Shown: positions 1 to 30,413 of the stretch, piece by piece | Layout of the letters: each line of letters starts with the position of its first letter | How positions within the stretch are numbered: position 1 is the first letter of the stretch | Virus record (IMG/VR): IMGVR_UViG_2541047880_000005 | DNA: 30,413 nt | Reading direction: 5' to 3' (one strand) | From: a virus | Lineage: Duplodnaviria > Heunggongvirae > Uroviricota > Caudoviricetes | The notes under the pieces: model-generated | The model's input: the letters and a program-made list of their open reading frames with translations, nothing else | What the model was told of the DNA's origin: nothing | The model's database searches: none | Position numbers and translations under genes: made by a program

Positions 1-981
1 TTATAACGTCACTCCGCCTTTTAGTGGATTCAGAGCGACGGCATTTTGCAGATAGTCAGGCGCAAGGTGCGCATAGGCCATCGTCTGCTGAATGCTCGCA
101 TGTCCCAGAATCTGTTGCAGTGCGATTATATTGCCCCCATTCATCATGAAATGGCTTGCGAATGTATGCCGCAGGATGTGGGTTGCCTGATTGGGTGGTA
201 TATCAGGTTTCACTCTGCGTAAAATCCCGCAAAATTTCTCATAATCAACTTTGAATAATTTGGCGCTGGCCTCCTCTTTAACTTTTTTCTCCAGTTCCTC
301 AGAAATCGGCACGGTTCGCTTTTTACCGTTTTTGGTTTTCAGGAAGGTAACCCTGCAATTTGTAATCTGTGCTGGTTTTAGCGTGGCAACTTCCGTCCAT
401 CTTCCTCCAGTGCTCAGACATAAAAGCGCGACAAGTAAGTCATCACCAGCCAAAACATTTAACAGTTTTTCGATTTCTGCTTTTTCCAGGAACGTCATTT
501 CAGGGTTGGCCTCCGCCAGTGGCGGCAGTCCGTGAATTGGGTGTTGCCCGGAAAATTCATCCAATTGAATTAATTTTGTGAACATGCCGGATAATCGGTA
601 CATGTCACGGTTTATCGTTGCGGCACTGATACCATCACGTAGTCGCATGGAACGATAATCCATCAAAGCCCTTTTGCTCATCCTGCTCACTGGTATATCA
701 CCTATGCCGCTGATGGTTTTGAGTAGATGATTAAACTCTTTTGTTCCATGCTCGTGGTTTTGCCCGTGATATTTCCACCAGATGTCCAGCAACTCACTCA
801 AAGTCCGGCGGTCTGCTCGCTGGCCTCCCCATTCTTTCTGACTGGCATTGGCGATTGTGTATCGCTCAAATGCTAGTGCTTCAGCTTTTCTTTCGAATTT
901 CCTGCGGATGCGTTTTCCGTCGCGACCGCGAGGTCTAATGTCCACTTCATAGCGACCATCATCGAGCTTCTTAATTGCCAT
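1..981 (-). CDS. int: Tyrosine recombinase, P2-type prophage integrase. Start chosen at the MAIKKL ATG (981), which has a GGAGG Shine-Dalgarno 8 nt upstream; the longer ORF from the ATG at 1011 has none.
   Basis: ORF track 1..1011 minus strand. N-terminus MAIKKLDDGRYEVDIRPRG resembles P2 Int as I recall it. C-terminus carries the tyrosine recombinase box (LRHTFASHF ... LGHASIQQTMAYAHL). First gene of the prophage, followed by C and cox as in P2. Confidence 0.9.
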   Translation of the reverse strand: MAIKKLDDGRYEVDIRPRGRDGKRIRRKFERKAEALAFERYTIANASQKEWGGQRADRRTLSELLDIWWKYHGQNHEHGTKEFNHLLKTISGIGDIPVSRMSKRALMDYRSMRLRDGISAATINRDMYRLSGMFTKLIQLDEFSGQHPIHGLPPLAEANPEMTFLEKAEIEKLLNVLAGDDLLVALLCLSTGGRWTEVATLKPAQITNCRVTFLKTKNGKKRTVPISEELEKKVKEEASAKLFKVDYEKFCGILRRVKPDIPPNQATHILRHTFASHFMMNGGNIIALQQILGHASIQQTMAYAHLAPDYLQNAVALNPLKGGVTL

Positions 982-1050
982 AAGAAAGCCCTCCGGCGCT
1001 GTATTCACCATCTTGGTAGCAAATGGTGAAAATGTAATCTTTATATAGAG

Positions 1051-3237: not shown

Positions 3238-3509
3238 GTATTCGTATTGAAATTGGCGAACGTTATGTCGTTACCAGTGACAGCTTTCAGTTTATTCTCC
3301 ACGAGAAAAAGAGAGCGGAAAGCGGTAAAAACGCCGGTCAGGAATGGCTGGCAGTGGTTGGTTATTACCCGAAATTAAGCCAGCTCGTTTCCGGCCTGAT
3401 GCATCACGATATTCTGACCGGAAGCGCAAAGTCTTTTGCTGATTTAAACGCGCAGGTTGAGCAACTCAGCAGGCGTTGTTCAGAGGCTTTTGGCTCATAT
3501 GGCCGTTAA
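3234..3509 (+). CDS. Small early hypothetical protein; its 3' end overlaps the start of A
   Basis: 91-aa ORF; ATG at 3234 overlaps the upstream stop, with a GGAG Shine-Dalgarno. Confidence 0.5.
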   Translation: MSIRIEIGERYVVTSDSFQFILHEKKRAESGKNAGQEWLAVVGYYPKLSQLVSGLMHHDILTGSAKSFADLNAQVEQLSRRCSEAFGSYGR

Positions 3510-5784
3510 AGCCTCCGGGCGTTTTGTCCCTCCGTCAGCATTTGCCGCAGGCACCGGTAAGGCGTTTACCGGTGCTTATGCATGGAACGCGCCACGCGAG
3601 GCCGTCGGGCGGGAAAGACCCCTTACACGTGACGAGATGCGTCAGGTGCAAGGTGTTTTATCCACGATTAACCGCCTGCCTTACTTTTTGCGCTCGCTGT
3701 TTACTTCACGCTATGACTACATCCGGCGCAATAAAAGCCCGGTGCACGGGTTTTATTTCCTCACATCCACTTTTCAGCGTCGTTTATGGCCGCGCATTGA
3801 GCGTGTGAATCAGCGCCATGAAATGAACACCGACGCGTCGTTGCTGTTTCTGGCAGAGCGCGACCAGTATGCGCGCCTGCCGGGGATGAATGACAAGGAG
3901 CTGAAAAAGTTTGCCGCCCGAATCTCATCGCAGCTTTTCATGATGTATGAGGAACTCTGCGATGCCTGGGTGGATGCGCATGGCGAAAAAGAATCGCTGT
4001 TTACGGATGAGGCGCAGGCTCACCTGTATGGTCATGTTGCTGGCGCTGCACGTGCTTTCAATATTTCCCCGCTTTACTGGAGAAAATACCGTAAAGGGCA
4101 GATGACCACGAGGCAGGCATATTCTGCCATTGCCCGCCTGTTTAACGATGAGTGGTGGATTAGTCAGCTTAAAGGCCAGCGTATGCGCTGGCATGAGGCG
4201 TTACTGATTGCTGTCGGGGGGGTCAATAAAGACCGTTCACCTTATGCCAGTAAACATGCCATTCGTGATGTGCGTGCGCGCCGCCAGGCAAATCTGGAAT
4301 TTCTTAAATCGTGTGACCTTGAAAACAGGGAAACCGGCGAGCGCATCGACCTTATCAGTAAGGTGATGGGCAGTATTTCTAATCCTGAAATTCGCCGGAT
4401 GGAGCTGATGAACACCATTGCCGGTATTGAGCGTTACGCCGCCTCAGAGGGTGATGTGGGGATGTTTATCACGCTTACCGCGCCGTCAAAGTATCACCCG
4501 ACACGTCAGGTTGGAAAAGGCGAAAATAAAACCGTCCAGCTTAATCACGGCTGGAATGATGAGGCATTTAATCCAAAGGATGCGCAGCGTTATCTCTGCC
4601 GTATCTGGAGCCTGATGCGCACGGCATTCAAGGATAATGATTTACAGGTCTACGGTTTGCGAGTCGTCGAGCCACACCACGACGGAACGCCGCACTGGCA
4701 TATGATGCTTTTTTGTAATCCACGCCAGCGTAACCAGATTATCGAAATCATGCGTCGCTATGCGCTCAAAGAGGATGGCGACGAAAGAGGAGCCGCGCGA
4801 AACCGTTTTCAGGCAAAACACCTTAACCGGGGCGGTGCTGCGGGATATATCGCGAAATACATTTCAAAAAATATCGACGGCTATGCACTGGATGGTCAGC
4901 TCGATAACGATACCGGCAGACCGCTGAAAGATACTGCGGCGGCTGTTACCGCATGGGCGTCAACGTGGCGCATCCCGCAATTTAAAACGGTTGGCCTGCC
5001 GACAATGGGAGCTTACCGTGAGCTACGTAAATTGCCTCGCGGCGTCAGCATTGCTGATGAATTTGACGAACGCGTGGAGGCTGCACGCGCCGCCGCAGAC
5101 AGTGGCGATTTTGCGTTGTATATCAGCGCGCAGGGCGGGGCAAATGTCCCGCGCGATTGTCAGACTGTCAGGGTCGCTCGTAGCCCGTCGGATGAAGTTA
5201 ACGAGTACGAGGAAGAAGTCGAGAGAGTGGTCGGCATTTACGCGCCGCATCTCGGCGCGCGTCATATTCATATCACCAGAACGACGGACTGGCGCATCGT
5301 GCCGAAAGTTCCGGTCGTTGAGCCTTTGACTTTAAAAAGCGGCATCGCCGCGCCTCGGAGTCCTGTCAATAACTGTGGAAAGCTCAACGGTGGTGATACT
5401 TCGTTACCGGCTCCCACACCTTCTGAGCACGCCGCAGCAGTGCTTAATCTGGTAGATGACGGTGTTATCGAATGGAGTGACCCGGAGGTTGTGAGGGCGC
5501 TCAGAGGTGCATTAAAACACGGACTGAGAACACCACATTGTCAGCCAAGAAACGGAAGCCCGTTAAAACCACATGAAATTGCACCATCGGCCAGACTGAC
5601 CCGGTCGGAAAGAATGCAAATCACCCGTATCCGCGTTGACCTTGCTCAGAACGGTATCAGGCCGCAGCGATGGGAGCTTGAGGCGCTGGTGCGTGGCGCG
5701 ACCGTAAATTATGACGGGAAAAAATTCACGTATCCGGTCGCTGATGAGTGGCCGGGATTCTCAACAGTAATGGAGTGGACATGA
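3499..5784 (+). CDS. A: Replication initiation endonuclease A (rolling-circle HUH nickase), P2 gpA homologue
   Basis: ORF track 3457..5784. Starting at the MAVKASG ATG (3499) gives 761 aa, the P2 gpA length. HUH motif (GTPHWHMMLF, about 4690..4710) and tyrosine motif (GYIAKYISKN, about 4840..4870) are visible. Confidence 0.9.
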   Translation: MAVKASGRFVPPSAFAAGTGKAFTGAYAWNAPREAVGRERPLTRDEMRQVQGVLSTINRLPYFLRSLFTSRYDYIRRNKSPVHGFYFLTSTFQRRLWPRIERVNQRHEMNTDASLLFLAERDQYARLPGMNDKELKKFAARISSQLFMMYEELCDAWVDAHGEKESLFTDEAQAHLYGHVAGAARAFNISPLYWRKYRKGQMTTRQAYSAIARLFNDEWWISQLKGQRMRWHEALLIAVGGVNKDRSPYASKHAIRDVRARRQANLEFLKSCDLENRETGERIDLISKVMGSISNPEIRRMELMNTIAGIERYAASEGDVGMFITLTAPSKYHPTRQVGKGENKTVQLNHGWNDEAFNPKDAQRYLCRIWSLMRTAFKDNDLQVYGLRVVEPHHDGTPHWHMMLFCNPRQRNQIIEIMRRYALKEDGDERGAARNRFQAKHLNRGGAAGYIAKYISKNIDGYALDGQLDNDTGRPLKDTAAAVTAWASTWRIPQFKTVGLPTMGAYRELRKLPRGVSIADEFDERVEAARAAADSGDFALYISAQGGANVPRDCQTVRVARSPSDEVNEYEEEVERVVGIYAPHLGARHIHITRTTDWRIVPKVPVVEPLTLKSGIAAPRSPVNNCGKLNGGDTSLPAPTPSEHAAAVLNLVDDGVIEWSDPEVVRALRGALKHGLRTPHCQPRNGSPLKPHEIAPSARLTRSERMQITRIRVDLAQNGIRPQRWELEALVRGATVNYDGKKFTYPVADEWPGFSTVMEWT

Positions 5785-6236
5785 TGGCAAAAATTCACGA
5801 GGTAAAGCTGCACGCAAAATATTTTGACCTTGTGCTGGAAGGAAAGAAACGCGCAGAGTTTCGGAAAAATGACCGTAATTATGAGCGCGGGGACACGTTG
5901 ATTTTGCATGAATGGGCGCAGGGTGTGTATACGGAGCGAAAGGTTGAAGCCCGGATAACAGATGTTACTGACCTGTCAGACTGGCTGGAAGATTATGTCT
6001 TGCTAAGTATTGAGCTGCTTAATACAGGCGCATATGAGATTGTGAACTGGAAAGAACTTAGTGAGCGTGGTCTGGTATTCAGAATTAATCATGAAATTAT
6101 GCATCAGCTCGGCCTTGCTGTTATGTATGCACCAGAGACGGGGATGTCTGGCGGGGCAATGGTTGCCACGGATGGAGCATGGAACTATTCAGATGAACAG
6201 ATTGAGCGTGCAAAGCAAAACGGGTGGCTTGGATAA
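5781..6236 (+). CDS. Hypothetical protein with an N-terminal ASCH/PUA-like region (tentative)
   Basis: ORF track 5748..6236. ATG at 5781 overlaps the A stop (ATGATG). N-terminus MAKIHEVKLHAKYFDLVLEGKKRAEFRKNDRNYERGDTLILHEW resembles ASCH-type domains; this is a judgement from the sequence, not a search result. GC content is phage-like. Confidence 0.55.
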   Translation: MMAKIHEVKLHAKYFDLVLEGKKRAEFRKNDRNYERGDTLILHEWAQGVYTERKVEARITDVTDLSDWLEDYVLLSIELLNTGAYEIVNWKELSERGLVFRINHEIMHQLGLAVMYAPETGMSGGAMVATDGAWNYSDEQIERAKQNGWLG

Positions 6237-6442
6237 TGCACAGAATACCGGGCGAGATACCGCAACATAACACTAAAAATATCAAGCTGATGGCTATTGT
6301 TCACCGTCTACAGCAGATTATGGTCAACGAAAATCTGACGCCTGACGAGCTGGTCGGGTGTGCCGAAATAGTCCGGGATAATTACGGGCGGCTTAATTAT
6401 ATCCGTCAGTCCAGAGTTGCTCCACCGCCACGCAGACTATAG
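6236..6442 (+). CDS. Small hypothetical protein; start uncertain
   Basis: ORF track 6224..6442 (GTG start). The ATG at 6236 overlaps the upstream stop (TAATG). No recognisable motif. Confidence 0.35.
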   Translation: MHRIPGEIPQHNTKNIKLMAIVHRLQQIMVNENLTPDELVGCAEIVRDNYGRLNYIRQSRVAPPPRRL

Positions 6443-6657
6443 AAAACGCCGTCAGTCTTGAAACTTGTTTTCAGGGCTGGCGGGGTTGAACAACGAGCAT
6501 CGCGAGGCGTTAGTGGTATTGGAACCAATGAGAAAACAAAAAACTCAACGCCTCCCCTCATGTTTGATGGTATGGTCTTGTTTTTAGGTAATGAAGCTTT
6601 ATTCGGGTGACGTGTCTAATATAGCTTTCTGCATGACGTTAGAATGATGATGAGATC

Positions 6658-7260
6658 ATGTTATTAATGAATGAGAAAAAAAGACAAAAATATCTAAAGA
6701 TAATGTTTGAATGTCAAAAGCGACTTGAAACACTTCATGCTTTATCATCTGGAAGGATTGATGGCATTTATTTTCAAGTGTTAATTGAAATGGAGGCGTT
6801 GCAGCTTAGGAAGCTACTAGAGCTCATTGCATTTTCATCTCTAATTTCACATGAAAAAGCATACGAGAAGGTTACAAAGAAGATTGATGGTGTATGGAAG
6901 GCGAAGAATATATTTAAAGAGTTGGAAAAGATAAACCCTAACTTTTATCCAGTACCAATATCAGGAGTAACCAAAACGGGCTGGACGAAACTAACGGGAG
7001 GTTTTTTGACGAAAAAACAGTTTATCAAGCTATATGATGAATGCTCAAAACATATTCACGTAAGGAACCCATATCGGGTTAGGGAAAACTCGCTGGGGTT
7101 TCATAAAAAAGTTCCAGAGTATTTATCAAGAATTGAAACTCTACTGTTAAAGCACATTGTTTCTCTTGCCGGGAATGAAGAACTTCTTCTTGTAGATGTG
7201 CCTCATTATGAAGACTCTGTAACAGCTATAAAAATGAGCCACCTCGTTAAAATGGGGTGA
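6658..7260 (+). CDS. Hypothetical 200-aa protein of unknown family; AT-rich accessory cargo in the P2 tin/old hotspot next to cos. Candidate anti-phage defence or abortive-infection gene.
   Basis: Uninterrupted 200-codon ORF, much more AT-rich than the flanking phage genes (first 60 nt have only 12 G or C). Preceded by a 215-bp non-coding AT-rich leader. Lies between the replication module and cos, where P2 carries tin and old. Predicted lysine-rich and probably helical. Contains an R-x6-H string (RENSLGFH, nt 7081..7104) that is compatible with, but does not prove, a HEPN-type motif. Confidence 0.7.
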   Translation: MLLMNEKKRQKYLKIMFECQKRLETLHALSSGRIDGIYFQVLIEMEALQLRKLLELIAFSSLISHEKAYEKVTKKIDGVWKAKNIFKELEKINPNFYPVPISGVTKTGWTKLTGGFLTKKQFIKLYDECSKHIHVRNPYRVRENSLGFHKKVPEYLSRIETLLLKHIVSLAGNEELLLVDVPHYEDSVTAIKMSHLVKMG

Positions 7261-7293
7261 AAAATAAGCAATAAATAGTCGATTCTAGTGAAC

Positions 7294-7315
7294 GGTCGGC
7301 TATTTTTAGCCGGAT
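7294..7315 (+). terminator. Possible terminator after the cargo gene: stem CGGCTA/TAGCCG with a TTTTT loop, followed by GATTTTTATA
   Basis: Hairpin read directly from the sequence, 30 to 50 nt after the cargo stop codon. Confidence 0.35.
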
Positions 7316-7478
7316 TTTTATACTGTTTCCCCTTAATTACAGTCGTTTCTATTCATGCATGTGCTATTGCATCGAATTGCATGCGTTTTCATCCCCTGTT
7401 GCTTATGAGCGTTGTCAGTGCTGGCGCATTCTCGGTATGTTCATGCAACTGCATCAAAATCGCCCCATGAAGCGGGCG

Positions 7479-13479: not shown

Positions 13480-13989
13480 ATGATGACGCTGATTATTCCG
13501 CGAAAGGAGGCTCCCGTGTCCGGTGAGGGTACGGTGGTCATCCCGCAACCGGCAGGCGACGAGCCGGTGATTAAAAACACGTTCTTTTTTCCCGATATCG
13601 ACCCGAAGCGCGTCCGGGAACGTATGCGCCTTGAGCAGACCGTCGCCCCCGCCCGTCTGCGTGAGGCCATCAAGTCAGGCATGGCGGAGACGAATGCGGA
13701 GCTGTACGAGTACCGCGAACAGAAAATTGCCGCCGGTTTTACGCGTCTGGCGGACGTCCCGGCGGACGACATCGACGGTGAAAGCATCAGAGTTTTTTAC
13801 TACGAGCGCGCCGTGTGCGCGATGGCGACCGCGTCGCTTTATGAGCGTTATCGCGGCGTGGATGCCAGTGCGAAAGGCGACAAGAAGGCTGACAGCATTG
13901 ACAGCACCATTGATGAACTGTGGCGGGATATGCGCTGGGCGGTGGCGCGTATCCAGGACAAGCCGCGCTGCATCGTGAGTCAAATCTGA
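13480..13989 (+). CDS. L: Head completion/stabilisation protein, P2 gpL homologue
   Basis: ORF track 13420..13989. Starting at MMTLIIPRKE (13480) gives 169 aa, the P2 L length. Confidence 0.85.
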   Translation: MMTLIIPRKEAPVSGEGTVVIPQPAGDEPVIKNTFFFPDIDPKRVRERMRLEQTVAPARLREAIKSGMAETNAELYEYREQKIAAGFTRLADVPADDIDGESIRVFYYERAVCAMATASLYERYRGVDASAKGDKKADSIDSTIDELWRDMRWAVARIQDKPRCIVSQI

Positions 13990-21961: not shown

Positions 21962-22539
21962 TGGCTTTCAGAATGAGTGCAGAAGCACAAACTATCCGCG
22001 TTTTCAATTTACTTAATGGAACCAATGAGTTTATTGGCGAAAGTGATGCATATATTCCGCCGTATACTGGCCTGCCTGCAAACAGTACAGATATTGCACC
22101 ACCTGATATTCCTGCTGGTTATGCAGCCGTTTTCAATGCAGATGAAATGAAATGGGAACTGATGGAAGACCATCGCGGAAAGACCGTCTACGAAACGAAA
22201 ACAGGAGCAGCCATTTATATTTCTGAACTTGGCGTATTACCTCCAGACGTGACAGCTATTTCCCCGGAGGGGGATTATCAGAAATGGGACGGAAATGCGT
22301 GGGTGAATGATGAGAATGCAGAACGTGATGCGCTTGTCAGAGCGGCGGAGTCTCAGAAGAAAGAGCAGATTGCATATGCAGGTGAAATTATTGCCACTCT
22401 GCAGGATGCTGTCGATTTAGATATGGCTACCGAGGAAGAAAAGTTAAGCCTGACACACTGGAAAAAATACCGTGTGCTACTGAATCGCGTTCAGCCGGAA
22501 AATGCCCCGGATATTGAATGGCCGGAACTACCGCAATAA
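21961..22539 (+). CDS. G: Tail fibre assembly chaperone, P2 gpG homologue
   Basis: 192 aa; start overlaps the H stop (TAATG); canonical position. Confidence 0.8.
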
Positions 22540-22544
22540 ACACA

Positions 22545-22570
22545 GGCGGGCTTATTGTCCGCTTTTTCTT
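22545..22570 (+). terminator. Probable intrinsic terminator after G: imperfect GC hairpin (GGCGGGCTTATTGTCCGC) followed by TTTTTCTTT
   Basis: Read directly from the sequence; lies at the end of the V-to-G operon and before the FI promoter region. Confidence 0.55.
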
Positions 22571-22671
22571 TATCGGTGGTTGTGCTGTCGATTAGCCAAC
22601 CGGGACAAATAGCCTGACATCTCCGGCACAACTGAAAATACCACTCACCCATTAACCACGGAGTTAAACGG

Positions 22672-23862
22672 ATGAGTGACTATCATCACGGCGTGCAGGT
22701 GCTGGAGATTAACGACGGCACCCGCGTCATTTCCACCGTATCTACTGCCATTGTCGGCATGGTCTGCACGGCCAGCGATGCGGATGCGGAAACCTTCCCC
22801 CTCAATAAACCGGTGCTGATTACCAATGTGCAGAGCGCAATTGCAAAGGCTGGTAAAAAAGGCACGCTGGCGGCATCGTTGCAGGCCATCGCCGACCAGT
22901 CAAAACCGGTCACCGTTGTCGTGCGTGTGGAAGACGGCACCGGCGACGACGAGGAAACGAAACTCGCGCAGACCGTTTCCAATATCATCGGCACCACCGA
23001 CGAAAACGGTCAGTACACCGGACTGAAAGCCCTGCTGGCGGCGGAGTCGGTAACCGGTGTTAAACCGCGTATTCTCGGCGTGCCGGGACTGGACACCAAA
23101 GAGGTGGCTGTTGCACTGGCATCAGTCTGTCAGAAGCTGCGCGCTTTCGGGTATATCAGCGCATGGGGCTGTAAAACTATTTCCGAGGTGAAAGCCTACC
23201 GCCAGAATTTCAGCCAGCGTGAGTTGATGGTCATCTGGCCGGATTTCCTCGCATGGGATACGGTCACCAGTACCACCGCCACCGCGTATGCCACCGCCCG
23301 TGCGCTGGGTCTGCGCGCTAAAATCGACCAGGAGCAGGGCTGGCATAAAACACTGTCCAACGTTGGGGTGAACGGTGTTACCGGCATCAGCGCATCTGTA
23401 TTCTGGGATTTGCAGGAGTCCGGCACCGATGCTGACCTGCTTAACGAGTCAGGCGTCACAACACTGATTCGCCGTGACGGTTTCCGCTTCTGGGGTAACC
23501 GTACCTGCTCTGATGACCCGCTGTTCCTCTTTGAAAACTACACCCGCACCGCGCAGGTACTGGCCGACACGATGGCTGAGGCGCACATGTGGGCGGTGGA
23601 CAAGCCCATCACCGCAACGCTGATTCGCGACATCGTTGACGGCATCAATGCCAAATTCCGAGAGCTGAAAACAAACGGCTATATCGTGGATGCGACCTGC
23701 TGGTTCAGTGAAGAATCCAACGATGCGGAAACCCTCAAGGCCGGAAAACTGTATATCGACTACGACTATACCCCGGTGCCTCCTCTTGAAAACATGACCC
23801 TGCGCCAGCGTATTACTGATAAATACCTGGCAAATCTGGTCACCTCGGTTAACAGCAATTAA
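22672..23862 (+). CDS. FI: Contractile tail sheath protein, P2 gpFI homologue
   Basis: 396 aa, the P2 FI length. Confidence 0.9.
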   Translation: MSDYHHGVQVLEINDGTRVISTVSTAIVGMVCTASDADAETFPLNKPVLITNVQSAIAKAGKKGTLAASLQAIADQSKPVTVVVRVEDGTGDDEETKLAQTVSNIIGTTDENGQYTGLKALLAAESVTGVKPRILGVPGLDTKEVAVALASVCQKLRAFGYISAWGCKTISEVKAYRQNFSQRELMVIWPDFLAWDTVTSTTATAYATARALGLRAKIDQEQGWHKTLSNVGVNGVTGISASVFWDLQESGTDADLLNESGVTTLIRRDGFRFWGNRTCSDDPLFLFENYTRTAQVLADTMAEAHMWAVDKPITATLIRDIVDGINAKFRELKTNGYIVDATCWFSEESNDAETLKAGKLYIDYDYTPVPPLENMTLRQRITDKYLANLVTSVNSN

Positions 23863-29284: not shown

Positions 29285-29310
29285 AGCCCCTCAGTTGAGG
29301 GGCTTTATTT
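29285..29310 (+). terminator. Intrinsic terminator after ogr: AGCCCCTC AGTT GAGGGGCT hairpin followed by TTATTT
   Basis: Perfect 8-bp stem with a 4-nt loop, 10 nt after the ogr stop. Confidence 0.7.
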
Positions 29311-29402: not shown

Positions 29403-29429
29403 CCCCCACATGATGTGGGGGTTTTTTTT
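29403..29429 (+). terminator. Strong intrinsic terminator: CCCCCACAT G ATGTGGGGG hairpin followed by eight T. Likely the host-side terminator of the gene upstream of fieF, and possibly the 3' end of a 3'-UTR-derived sRNA.
   Basis: Perfect 9-bp stem and T8 run read directly from the sequence, about 80 nt upstream of fieF. Confidence 0.75.
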
Positions 29430-29510
29430 ATCCTCAATTTGCCTGCTGCTTAATGCATTGCAGATGATTTGCTTCCGTTATACTACCATCAGTTGATAGC
29501 GGGAGTATTT

Positions 29511-30413
29511 ATGAATCAATCTTATGGACGGCTGGTCAGTCGGGCGGCGATTGCTGCGACGGCGATGGCTTCGCTGCTATTGCTGATTAAAATTTTTGCA
29601 TGGTGGTATACCGGGTCGGTGAGTATTCTCGCCGCGCTGGTGGATTCGCTGGTGGATATCGGCGCGTCGTTGACGAATTTACTGGTGGTGCGATATTCCC
29701 TGCAACCTGCCGACGATAATCACTCGTTTGGTCACGGTAAAGCTGAGTCCCTCGCGGCGCTGGCGCAAAGTATGTTTATCTCCGGTTCGGCACTATTCCT
29801 GTTTTTGACGGGTATTCAACATCTGGTATCTCCAACACCGATGACAGATCCAGGCGTCGGGGTTATCGTGACAATTGTGGCGCTAATTTGTACGATTATC
29901 CTTGTCTCGTTTCAGCGTTGGGTGGTGCGCCGGACGCAAAGCCAGGCGGTGCGGGCTGATATGCTACATTACCAGTCTGATGTTATGATGAACGGCGCAA
30001 TTCTGCTGGCGCTGGGGTTGTCCTGGTACGGCTGGCATCGCGCCGATGCTCTGTTTGCATTGGGGATCGGCATCTATATTTTATATAGCGCGTTACGCAT
30101 GGGATATGAGGCGGTACAGTCATTACTGGATCGCGCATTACCTGATGAGGAACGGCAAGAAATTATTGATATCGTGACTTCCTGGCCGGGTGTTAGCGGC
30201 GCTCACGATCTTCGCACGCGGCAGTCAGGGCCGACCCGCTTTATTCAGATTCATTTGGAAATGGAAGACTCTCTGCCTTTGGTTCAGGCACATATGGTGG
30301 CGGATCAGGTAGAGCAGGCTATTTTACGGCGTTTTCCGGGATCGGATGTGATTATCCATCAGGACCCCTGTTCCGTCGTACCCAGGGAGGGTAAACGGTC
30401 TATGCTTTCATAA
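29511..30413 (+). CDS. fieF: Cation-diffusion-facilitator family Fe/Zn efflux transporter FieF (YiiP); host chromosomal gene
   Basis: 300-aa ORF (track 29469..30413, ATG at 29511). Multi-pass membrane protein with a C-terminal cytoplasmic domain; the sequence matches E. coli FieF/YiiP as I recall it. Marks the host flank to the right of the prophage. Confidence 0.9.

Follow-up and report, generated by a model that had tools for sequence, protein, structure and literature searches.

A variable, low-GC cassette at positions 6520-7440 of the window (the whole stretch of 30,413 nucleotides that was analysed, a P2-like prophage) is best explained as a self-contained, horizontally acquired accessory module of one gene, a so-called moron, located in the gpA-gpQ hotspot. 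The gene codes for a 197-aa protein, which is proposed, with a chance somewhat short of even, to be a single-gene anti-phage factor in a defence hotspot. The protein would act alone, and abortive infection or exclusion would be its means of protecting the lysogen. Defence is made plausible by the location of the gene, its foreign composition and modular reuse, its carriage on a plasmid, its singleton behaviour and the strong constraint on it. The window extends from the integrase gene (1-1011, minus strand) through the host gene fieF (29469-30413, Cation_efflux), and the equivalent prophage of E. coli M15 adjoins cpxP. The features around the slot are the following.

3457..5784, plus strand: gpA replication endonuclease (from the ORF list; the M15 equivalent is annotated 'replication endonuclease', and Phage_GPA is matched at homologous loci)
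5784..6236, plus strand: gene with DUF3850/ASCH and DUF7415 (Pfam E-values of 6.7e-17, 2.5e-14 and 6.3e-10)
6224..6442, plus strand: small ORF of 72 aa in the ORF list and 68 aa as annotated
6445..6487, no strand assigned: strong conserved hairpin with a 15-bp stem (fold of -31.7 kcal/mol, z = -3.7)
6520..7440, no strand assigned: variable low-GC cassette, delimited by its junctions in comparison with relatives
6520..6666, plus strand: AT-rich leader, from cross-genus alignment
6667..7260, plus strand: CDS of the 197-aa protein (WP_021519103; phrog_13799), as in RefSeq; 200 aa if translation begins in frame at 6658 instead
7296..7321, plus strand: terminator-like hairpin with T-run, from a terminator scan, 36 nt past the stop codon
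7479..7497, no strand assigned: GGCGAGGCGGGGAAAGCAC, read directly from the sequence, which we take to be the cohesive-end sequence (cos) of P2
7667..8701, minus strand: portal gene Q, from the ORF list and annotation

The gpA gene, whose annotated start is probably slightly downstream of 3457, and the portal gene Q are the left and right core genes defining the hotspot. The latter was defined by Rousset et al. (2022; PMC9122126), who validated old-tin and found that three of eight further cloned hotspot systems protected against their panel of eight phages. In the survey of Moura de Sousa et al. (2026), gpA-gpQ is a hotspot with many P2 defence systems; known defence systems were present in 49% of P2-like prophages, and in 81% when putative ones were counted. 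An earlier reading of this DNA made from the sequence only had recognized a single-gene cargo in the P2 tin/old hotspot, and this was confirmed: the gene lies between gpA, which ends at 5784, and Q, next to cos, and the content of the slot is variable among syntenic P2-like genomes. The same reading had assigned the DUF3850/ASCH gene and the 72-aa ORF to the replication module, which had to be corrected since Rousset et al. (2022; PMC9122126) include both in the cargo of the hotspot. The DUF3850/ASCH gene is a more widespread accessory cargo, unlinked to the 197-aa gene, and is missing from the Enterobacter and Salmonella loci harbouring the latter. No family match was obtained for the small ORF, and the ORF list contained no credible gene on the minus strand of the cassette. 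The Z/fun slot of the prophage is empty, and the prophage is otherwise minimal P2-like.

The GC content of the cassette is 37.1%, compared to 53.5% in the remainder of the window. It represents the lowest-GC stretch of the window, with a z-score of -3.8 against all other 921-nt windows. This quantitative comparison, in which the cassette was not identical in composition to the flanking DNA, substantiated the foreign composition noticed in the sequence-only reading. The insert had been delimited there at 6443-7320. The AT-rich insert itself was recovered, while its edges were displaced on both sides. On the left, the first approximately 75 nt (6443-6519, 52% GC) were identified as conserved P2 backbone common to 198 E. 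coli genomes, P2 and Wphi, with 90-100% identity across these E. coli genomes and other P2-like phages. Consequently, the leader measures about 140 nt and not 215 bp as previously proposed. On the right, the junction was located at 7368-7445, varying with the relative used for comparison, and backbone homology restarts approximately 35-110 nt left of cos. The cassette of about 920 bp is thus made of the leader, the gene and the terminator-like hairpin. Other P2-like phages matched the flanks only, without the cassette. Searches for flanking repeats or transposon ends of the cassette found none, and no Rfam/ncRNA match was obtained in the cassette or the leader.

Analysis of expression signals revealed a -10-like box (TAATAT, 6617-6622) in the leader, to which TATAAT is aligned in the Salmonella copy. 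This box is the only promoter element alignable among the three genera. A strict sigma-70 promoter scan gave zero plus-strand sites upstream of the gene, and the fold stability of the leader was not higher than that of shuffled sequences. The fold of the hairpin at 7296-7321 is weakly favourable (-15 kcal/mol, z = -1.8). The gene may be expressed from its own signals. It is, however, oriented like the early operon cox-A and lies immediately 3' of it, an arrangement that would also suit a gene expressed early for the benefit of the phage, either to beat the immunity of the host or of a rival, or to aid replication or packaging by its position next to cos. The strong hairpin at 6445-6487 speaks against such a role since it stands between the gene and the early operon. 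It belongs to the backbone segment of 75 nt that borders the variable region on the left, and is followed by TTTTCT on the minus strand.

The ORF of 200 codons at 6658..7260 on the plus strand was present as claimed in the sequence-only reading. RefSeq and the phage record both begin the gene at 6667, giving 197 aa. In the alignment, the copies of Enterobacter and Salmonella begin with this ATG and have a Shine-Dalgarno sequence (GGAGG or GGGG) for it, so that the start at 6667 appears more likely than that at 6658. Comparison of the E. coli, Enterobacter and Salmonella copies gave dN/dS values of 0.07-0.09 with synonymous sites near saturation, which indicates at the sequence level that the gene is under strong purifying selection. 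The product contains 12.5% Lys, has a pI of 9.5 and is mostly helical, and the earlier description of a lysine-rich, helical protein agrees with the AlphaFold model, in which helices dominate. That the gene is an ORF present by chance in AT-rich junk, or a remnant in decay, would be in line with the lack of promoter in the strict scan, but the probability of this explanation is close to nil. In addition to the low dN/dS values, thousands of full-length homologues exist, the structure prediction is confident, and the gene is intact with 99-100% identity in all 20 complete E. coli genomes that harbour the cassette. The conservation data rule out a non-functional ORF.

The distribution of the cassette was investigated in 5,426 complete E. 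coli genomes. The whole cassette was found in 20 of them, and the left junction in 198. An identical cassette is also present in the Yersinia phage vB_YpM_50 (recorded host Y. pestis). P2-like prophages of Enterobacter display a copy with 76% identity directly after gpA, either alone or beside unrelated cargo, and 186-like prophages of Salmonella display a copy with 72% identity, located after a DinI-like gene and a gene coding for 243 aa. Altogether, the homologues from Enterobacter and Salmonella in this slot span 72-77% identity and have different neighbours. The comparison with the same slot in other prophages, which had been proposed as a follow-up, thus showed that the gene recurs between gpA and gpQ in P2-like/186-like prophages of Escherichia, Enterobacter and Salmonella.

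Beyond this slot, a member with 32% identity adjoins genes for a CI-like repressor, a sigma factor and O/DnaC-type replication proteins in an unrelated temperate phage. Another family member is encoded on a 6.6-kb MobQ plasmid of Paracoccus (eight annotated genes), where it adjoins a RelE/ParE toxin. A word-indexed search identified 80 homologues of the 197-aa protein, and a profile search in 1.84 billion representatives retrieved 2,633 clusters at 50% identity, including 606 with E < 1e-30. The hosts belong to the Gamma-, Beta- and Alphaproteobacteria, Acidobacteriota, Campylobacterota, Nitrospinota, Verrucomicrobiota, Chloroflexota, Cyanobacteria, Thermotogota and Bdellovibrionota. Almost all of them are lone genes coding for about 200 aa, and apart from the cases above the family is chromosomal. 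In sequenced phages the family is rare, with one phage (two records) among 50,697 records and six IMG/VR contigs. In 71 of 76 genomic loci, the GC content of the gene was lower than that of its flanks; the difference had a median of -8.8 points. Because of this lower GC and the scattered distribution, the sequence data argue for a family spread by repeated horizontal transfer and not for a housekeeping role.

These data also bear on a role for the benefit of the phage. The retention of the cassette in vB_YpM_50 is compatible with such a role, and anti-RM or anti-CRISPR genes have been found in 28 of 1,511 P2-like prophages (Moura de Sousa et al., 2026). On the other hand, only about 0.4% of these prophages harbour the cassette, which is therefore not needed for replication or packaging. 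Moreover, the family is overwhelmingly chromosomal and is found as lone genes in many phyla, outside any phage context, unlike typical anti-defence proteins, which have a narrow range and evolve fast. It also displays strong purifying selection and invariant residues. A counter-defence or other phage-serving function is thus considered very improbable.

The neighbourhood of the gene was analysed in the 76 loci. No neighbour family recurred beyond generic ones, and the immediate neighbours were dissimilar to each other even at an E-value of 0.01, with no antitoxin among them. A two-gene toxin-antitoxin or Abi module is not indicated, as a partner was absent in these loci and the Enterobacter copies can stand alone. 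The immediate neighbours of chromosomal homologues were mostly housekeeping genes, with a few resolvases and transposases. Single immediate neighbours matched the defence models for Type III methyltransferase, ThsB, SoFic, PycC, RT and PD-T4-6. As they were counted without a background rate, the tie to neighbouring defence genes is mild at most. Several observations weigh against defence: the 197-aa protein has no PADLOC match, most chromosomal homologues lie among housekeeping genes, in no obvious defence islands, the family is rare in sequenced phages, the strict scan gave no promoter, and only three of the eight further hotspot systems mentioned above were protective.

The gene could also be a non-defence accessory gene, with a stress, metabolic, regulatory or addiction-type function, that simply rides in the hotspot. 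The housekeeping surroundings of the chromosomal homologues fit such a function, as do the lack of likeness to any defence model and the fact that pI is not conserved in the family. Furthermore, part of the hotspot cargo is non-defensive, with partition systems and a cytolethal distending toxin as examples (Rousset et al., 2022; PMC9122126). In contrast, the low GC in most loci and the scattered distribution point to repeated horizontal transfer, the gene recurs at moron positions in two unrelated kinds of temperate phages and on a small mobilisable plasmid, and no conserved metabolic or regulatory partner was found. A non-defence function is regarded as rather unlikely, though less so than the other rivals of the anti-phage role. 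Regarding the latter, hotspot cargo and a defence candidate designated by location are what stood of the defence interpretation given in the sequence-only reading, while the HEPN motif on which it also drew did not (see below).

The gene had been called undescribed. The exact 200-aa sequence is however already listed as system 58, without domain, by Rousset et al. (2022; PMC9122126) in their Table S5B, where the figure 70 given beside it is apparently an occurrence count. In Table S5 of the same study, WP_021519103 appears in loci labelled 'DUF3850/ASCH + hypothetical (+ hypothetical)'. The accession and the sequence were not found elsewhere in the supplements of that study, including the table of tested systems. 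In the literature searched, no paper naming WP_021519103 or phrog_13799 was found beyond Rousset et al., and nothing on the gene was found in Vassallo et al. (2022; including supplements), Egorov et al. (2024) or a 2026 NAR paper. The protein can thus be considered as listed, yet uncharacterised and without annotation.

The 197-aa protein gave zero matches in Pfam, NCBIfam and PADLOC, in agreement with the earlier statement that it has no recognisable domain signature. The profile search recommended at that time (Pfam, PADLOC) matched no known structural, replication or other family, and no recurrent Pfam or PADLOC match was obtained with 150 diverse relatives. The protein is a full-length member of phrog_13799 (PHROGs v4; E = 1.8e-109, residues 4-200 on profile positions 1-197 of 198), which is also matched by a distant phage-borne relative (E = 6e-35). 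This PHROG has no functional annotation and shows only that the family had been clustered earlier. Among ten longer relatives, extended at the N- or the C-terminus, none contained a Pfam domain. In one of them, the N-terminus includes a hydrophobic region that weakly matches EI24/CysZ. The basic charge of the product was rejected as a family trait, since the median pI of the family is 7.9 and 27% of the members have a pI below 6.5. As pI is not conserved across the family, charge does not imply nucleic-acid binding.

The structure was predicted with AlphaFold2 from an alignment of 49 sequences, resulting in a confident model (pLDDT of 90.4, pTM of 0.88) with helices at residues 3-28, 36-59, 63-73, 79-89, 116-130 and 142-161, and strands at 96-102, 105-108, 162-166, 173-177 and 189-193. 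Mean-field coevolution analysis of 222 family sequences gave antiparallel registers for H1-H2, H2-H5 and H5-H6, and packed the C-terminal sheet on helix 1. Taken together, the model and the coevolution registers predict a core that is a four-helix bundle (H1-H2-H5-H6), in which a long insert separates the second bundle helix from the third. The product would thus be a soluble alpha+beta protein of about 23 kDa, in which a small C-terminal sheet lies on helix 1 of the bundle. The structural search, also suggested earlier, was done with Foldseek and gave no significant match, either against the PDB (best E = 0.66) or against the predicted viral structures of BFVD (best E = 0.46). The PDB was also searched by sequence, once with the 197-aa protein alone and once with the profile of its family, and nothing significant emerged, the best match being 2jpu/2q00 with an E-value of 0.18. 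This PaREP1 HEPN protein was rejected as a relative because the family profile fails to align to PaREP1, which points to a chance match.

In the 150 diverse members, R48, E52, P95 and H131 are invariant, and Y9, R19, E41, F93, Y94, P97, N134, P135 and H163 are conserved in at least 90%. According to a coarse coevolution register, established without model coordinates, R19, R48, K49, E52, T115 and H163 occupy one level of the bundle, and E41, Y123, H131 and N134 are located one to two turns off, so that the conserved polar residues form two layers. As the register places H131 one to two helical turns apart from R48 and E52, these residues may not belong to one shared site.

The sequence-only reading had proposed the R-x6-H string RENSLGFH (residues 142-149 in the 200-aa form) as a degenerate HEPN-type RNase motif. 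The string is present, but it is located in a variable, indel-containing stretch, and therefore does not qualify as a catalytic motif. Its Arg and His (R139 and H146 in the 197-aa numbering) are not conserved in the alignments of 49 and 150 sequences, even among gammaproteobacterial relatives. [quoted passage not shown] No Rx4-6H is found throughout the protein, and no Arg precedes the invariant H131 by 4-6 residues. The invariant acidic residue E52 appears as R48-x3-E52, in the reverse order of Ex3[KR], and the N-terminus of the last helix, where the HEPN site would be expected, is variable. At E-values up to 1, none of the 150 members matched a Pfam HEPN family. Profile-profile comparison with hhalign covered two HEPN families and gave probabilities of 0.06-0.12% for DUF86/HepT, the profile of which was built from the HepT gene at locus L068, and of 0.08% for PaREP1. 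The similarity in fold to HepT toxins was no better than to generic helical bundles.

A divergent HEPN protein can still be conceived as a particular case of the defence function, in which a metal-independent RNase cleaves tRNA or mRNA upon phage infection. H131, in the loop preceding the last bundle helix, would serve as catalytic His, and R48 and E52 on helix 2 would replace the motif Arg and the acidic residue. The predicted pair of alpha-hairpins, set apart by the long insert, is compatible with the HEPN topology, and among HEPN families PaREP1 keeps the His without the motif Arg and AbiV uses alternative sites (PMC3710099). The invariant residues add a chemical argument in the same direction. 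Sets of Arg, Glu and His are suited to metal-independent RNA cleavage, as in RNase T1 and barnase. Besides the missing motif and the negligible profile similarity, however, the coevolution register sets H131 away from R48 and E52. HEPN membership is not supported, a divergent HEPN RNase appears improbable, and RNase-like action of the protein is a low-probability guess.

Returning to the anti-phage role in its general form, the family occurs in many phyla, always as a lone gene, with an invariant set of Arg, Glu and His. For these reasons the protein would be an enzyme or a ligand-binding effector whose substrate is universal in cells, with RNA or a nucleotide as leading guess, and not a binder of one particular phage protein. 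Catalysis by the protein is suggested by residue conservation. In its most extended version, the proposal implies a new broad family of single-protein anti-phage effectors that need no partner, show a fold not represented in the PDB, carry an Arg/Glu/His site on the four-helix bundle, and are shuttled by temperate phages and small plasmids. As a whole, this is a possible but doubtful scenario.

If protective, the gene would represent a small defence coded by one gene of about 0.6 kb, the product of which has an unrecognised fold, and the annotation of defence would reach far past enterobacterial prophages, to thousands of clusters in many phyla. If the gene has no defence phenotype, it would exemplify non-defence cargo in a hotspot often presumed defensive. 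It offers in both cases a clean test of guilt-by-location, as it is among the few variable genes of an otherwise minimal P2-like prophage. Because little else varies in this prophage, a phenotype of the lysogen could be traced more easily to the 197-aa gene, and the four invariant residues are ready targets for mutation. While it is one among many candidates of the P2 hotspot, and of moderate interest as such, it makes a good experimental target as a gene that stands alone, belongs to a large family and codes for a confidently predicted, apparently unmatched fold.

Compared to known systems, the protein differs from standalone or toxin-type HEPN RNases such as HepT/DUF86 and AbiV-like Abi proteins in that it has neither the Rx4-6H motif nor any profile similarity to the HEPN families compared. 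Furthermore, its gene has no MNT or antitoxin partner, and its product displays an additional C-terminal beta-sheet. The validated DUF4238 system also consists of one gene in the P2 hotspot, without assigned molecular function, and was found by guilt-by-location (Rousset et al., 2022; PMC9122126). It belongs to another family, as the 197-aa protein matches neither DUF4238 in Pfam nor any PADLOC model, and an anti-T7 phenotype has been shown for DUF4238.

P2 Tin is a single protein responsible for the exclusion of T-even phages. Like tin and old, the 197-aa gene is an accessory gene of the slot between gpA and cos/Q, the content of which is variable among P2-like phages. Its product is neither Tin nor Old, as stated in the sequence-only reading, and shares no sequence similarity with them: tblastn against the 50,697 phage records, including the P2 genomes, returned vB_YpM_50 only, and PADLOC was blank. 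Tin is likewise a single protein without recognisable enzymatic domain (Rousset et al., 2022; PMC9122126). In contrast to Tin, which binds one phage protein, the 197-aa protein would rather be an enzyme or a ligand-binding effector and, unlike Tin, it belongs to a family that is widespread over bacterial phyla outside phages.

The cassette carrying the 197-aa gene was detected outside E. coli prophages as well. It is identical (99.9% at the nucleotide level) in the P2-like Yersinia phage vB_YpM_50 (MT374858.1, 2945-3822), whose host on record is Y. pestis EV76, so that a free phage with the 197-aa gene is available for experiments. Paracoccus sanguinis harbours a family member with about 29% identity on pPspOM7 (NZ_CP051545.1, 1708-2322), a MobQ plasmid of 6.6 kb with eight annotated genes, the family member included. 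An HTH protein and a RelE/ParE toxin are encoded there too. A further member of 204 aa is encoded on an IMG/VR contig (L020, 5983-6597) of a temperate phage of unrelated kind, where it adjoins genes for a sigma factor, a CI-like repressor and replication proteins of the O/DnaC type. Such a location close to the immunity region is typical of morons.

Fused forms of the family are rare, and none of them (P0087, P0083, P0094, P0096, P0225 and P0157) gave a Pfam match. P0087 displays a hydrophobic region at its N-terminus which is probably membrane-spanning, and P0083 carries an uncharacterised N-terminal domain of 125 aa. An acidic C-terminal extension is common to P0094, P0096 and P0225, and P0157 has a C-terminal extension of 180 aa. 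In a locus from an Acetobacteraceae MAG (L068), a canonical HepT/DUF86 toxin gene with the motif RHRLIHDY (13635-13979) and the family member are separated by about 3 kb. The proximity of both genes is probably coincidental, and the HepT/DUF86 gene was used solely as seed of the HEPN profile.

In the window, the gene with DUF3850/ASCH and DUF7415 domains and the following 72-aa ORF (5784-6442) are assigned to the cargo of the gpA-gpQ hotspot, and not to the replication module, by Rousset et al. (2022; PMC9122126). Both are much commoner than the 197-aa gene, as follows from the presence of the conserved left junction of the hotspot in 198 complete E. coli genomes. ASCH domains are RNA-binding folds. 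Directly 3' of the final ORF of the early operon, and within the 75-nt conserved left edge of the hotspot, the following structure was predicted:

6445-6487: hairpin with a 15-bp stem (fold -31.7 kcal/mol, z -3.7)

It is devoid of a U-run on the plus strand, and TTTTCT follows the stem on the minus strand. The hairpin could be a terminator for leftward-transcribed cargo of other P2 variants, or a recombination boundary.

The second classical P2 hotspot, Z/fun, which is flanked by FI and the tail-fibre assembly gene G, contains no cargo in this prophage, and the ORFs are only 133 bp apart (22539-22672). Therefore, the gpA-gpQ cargo is the obvious variable content of this prophage of ~29 kb. In the segment 29280-30413, the prophage stops short of the host gene fieF (Cation_efflux and ZT_dimer domains), and two structures were found 3' of ogr:

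about 29285-29310: terminator-like hairpin with T-run
about 29405-29430: terminator-like hairpin with T-run

E. coli strain M15 harbours the equivalent prophage at the same insertion site, adjoining cpxP. Enterobacter P2-like prophages with a homologue of the 197-aa gene carry further cargo directly after the tail gene S:

L005, 19654-20594: HNH_5 protein
L006, 19801-20594: Pycsar pair (PycTM and cyclase)
L007, 19832-20594: GmrSD_N protein

These three loci illustrate another variable slot of the same Enterobacter prophages.
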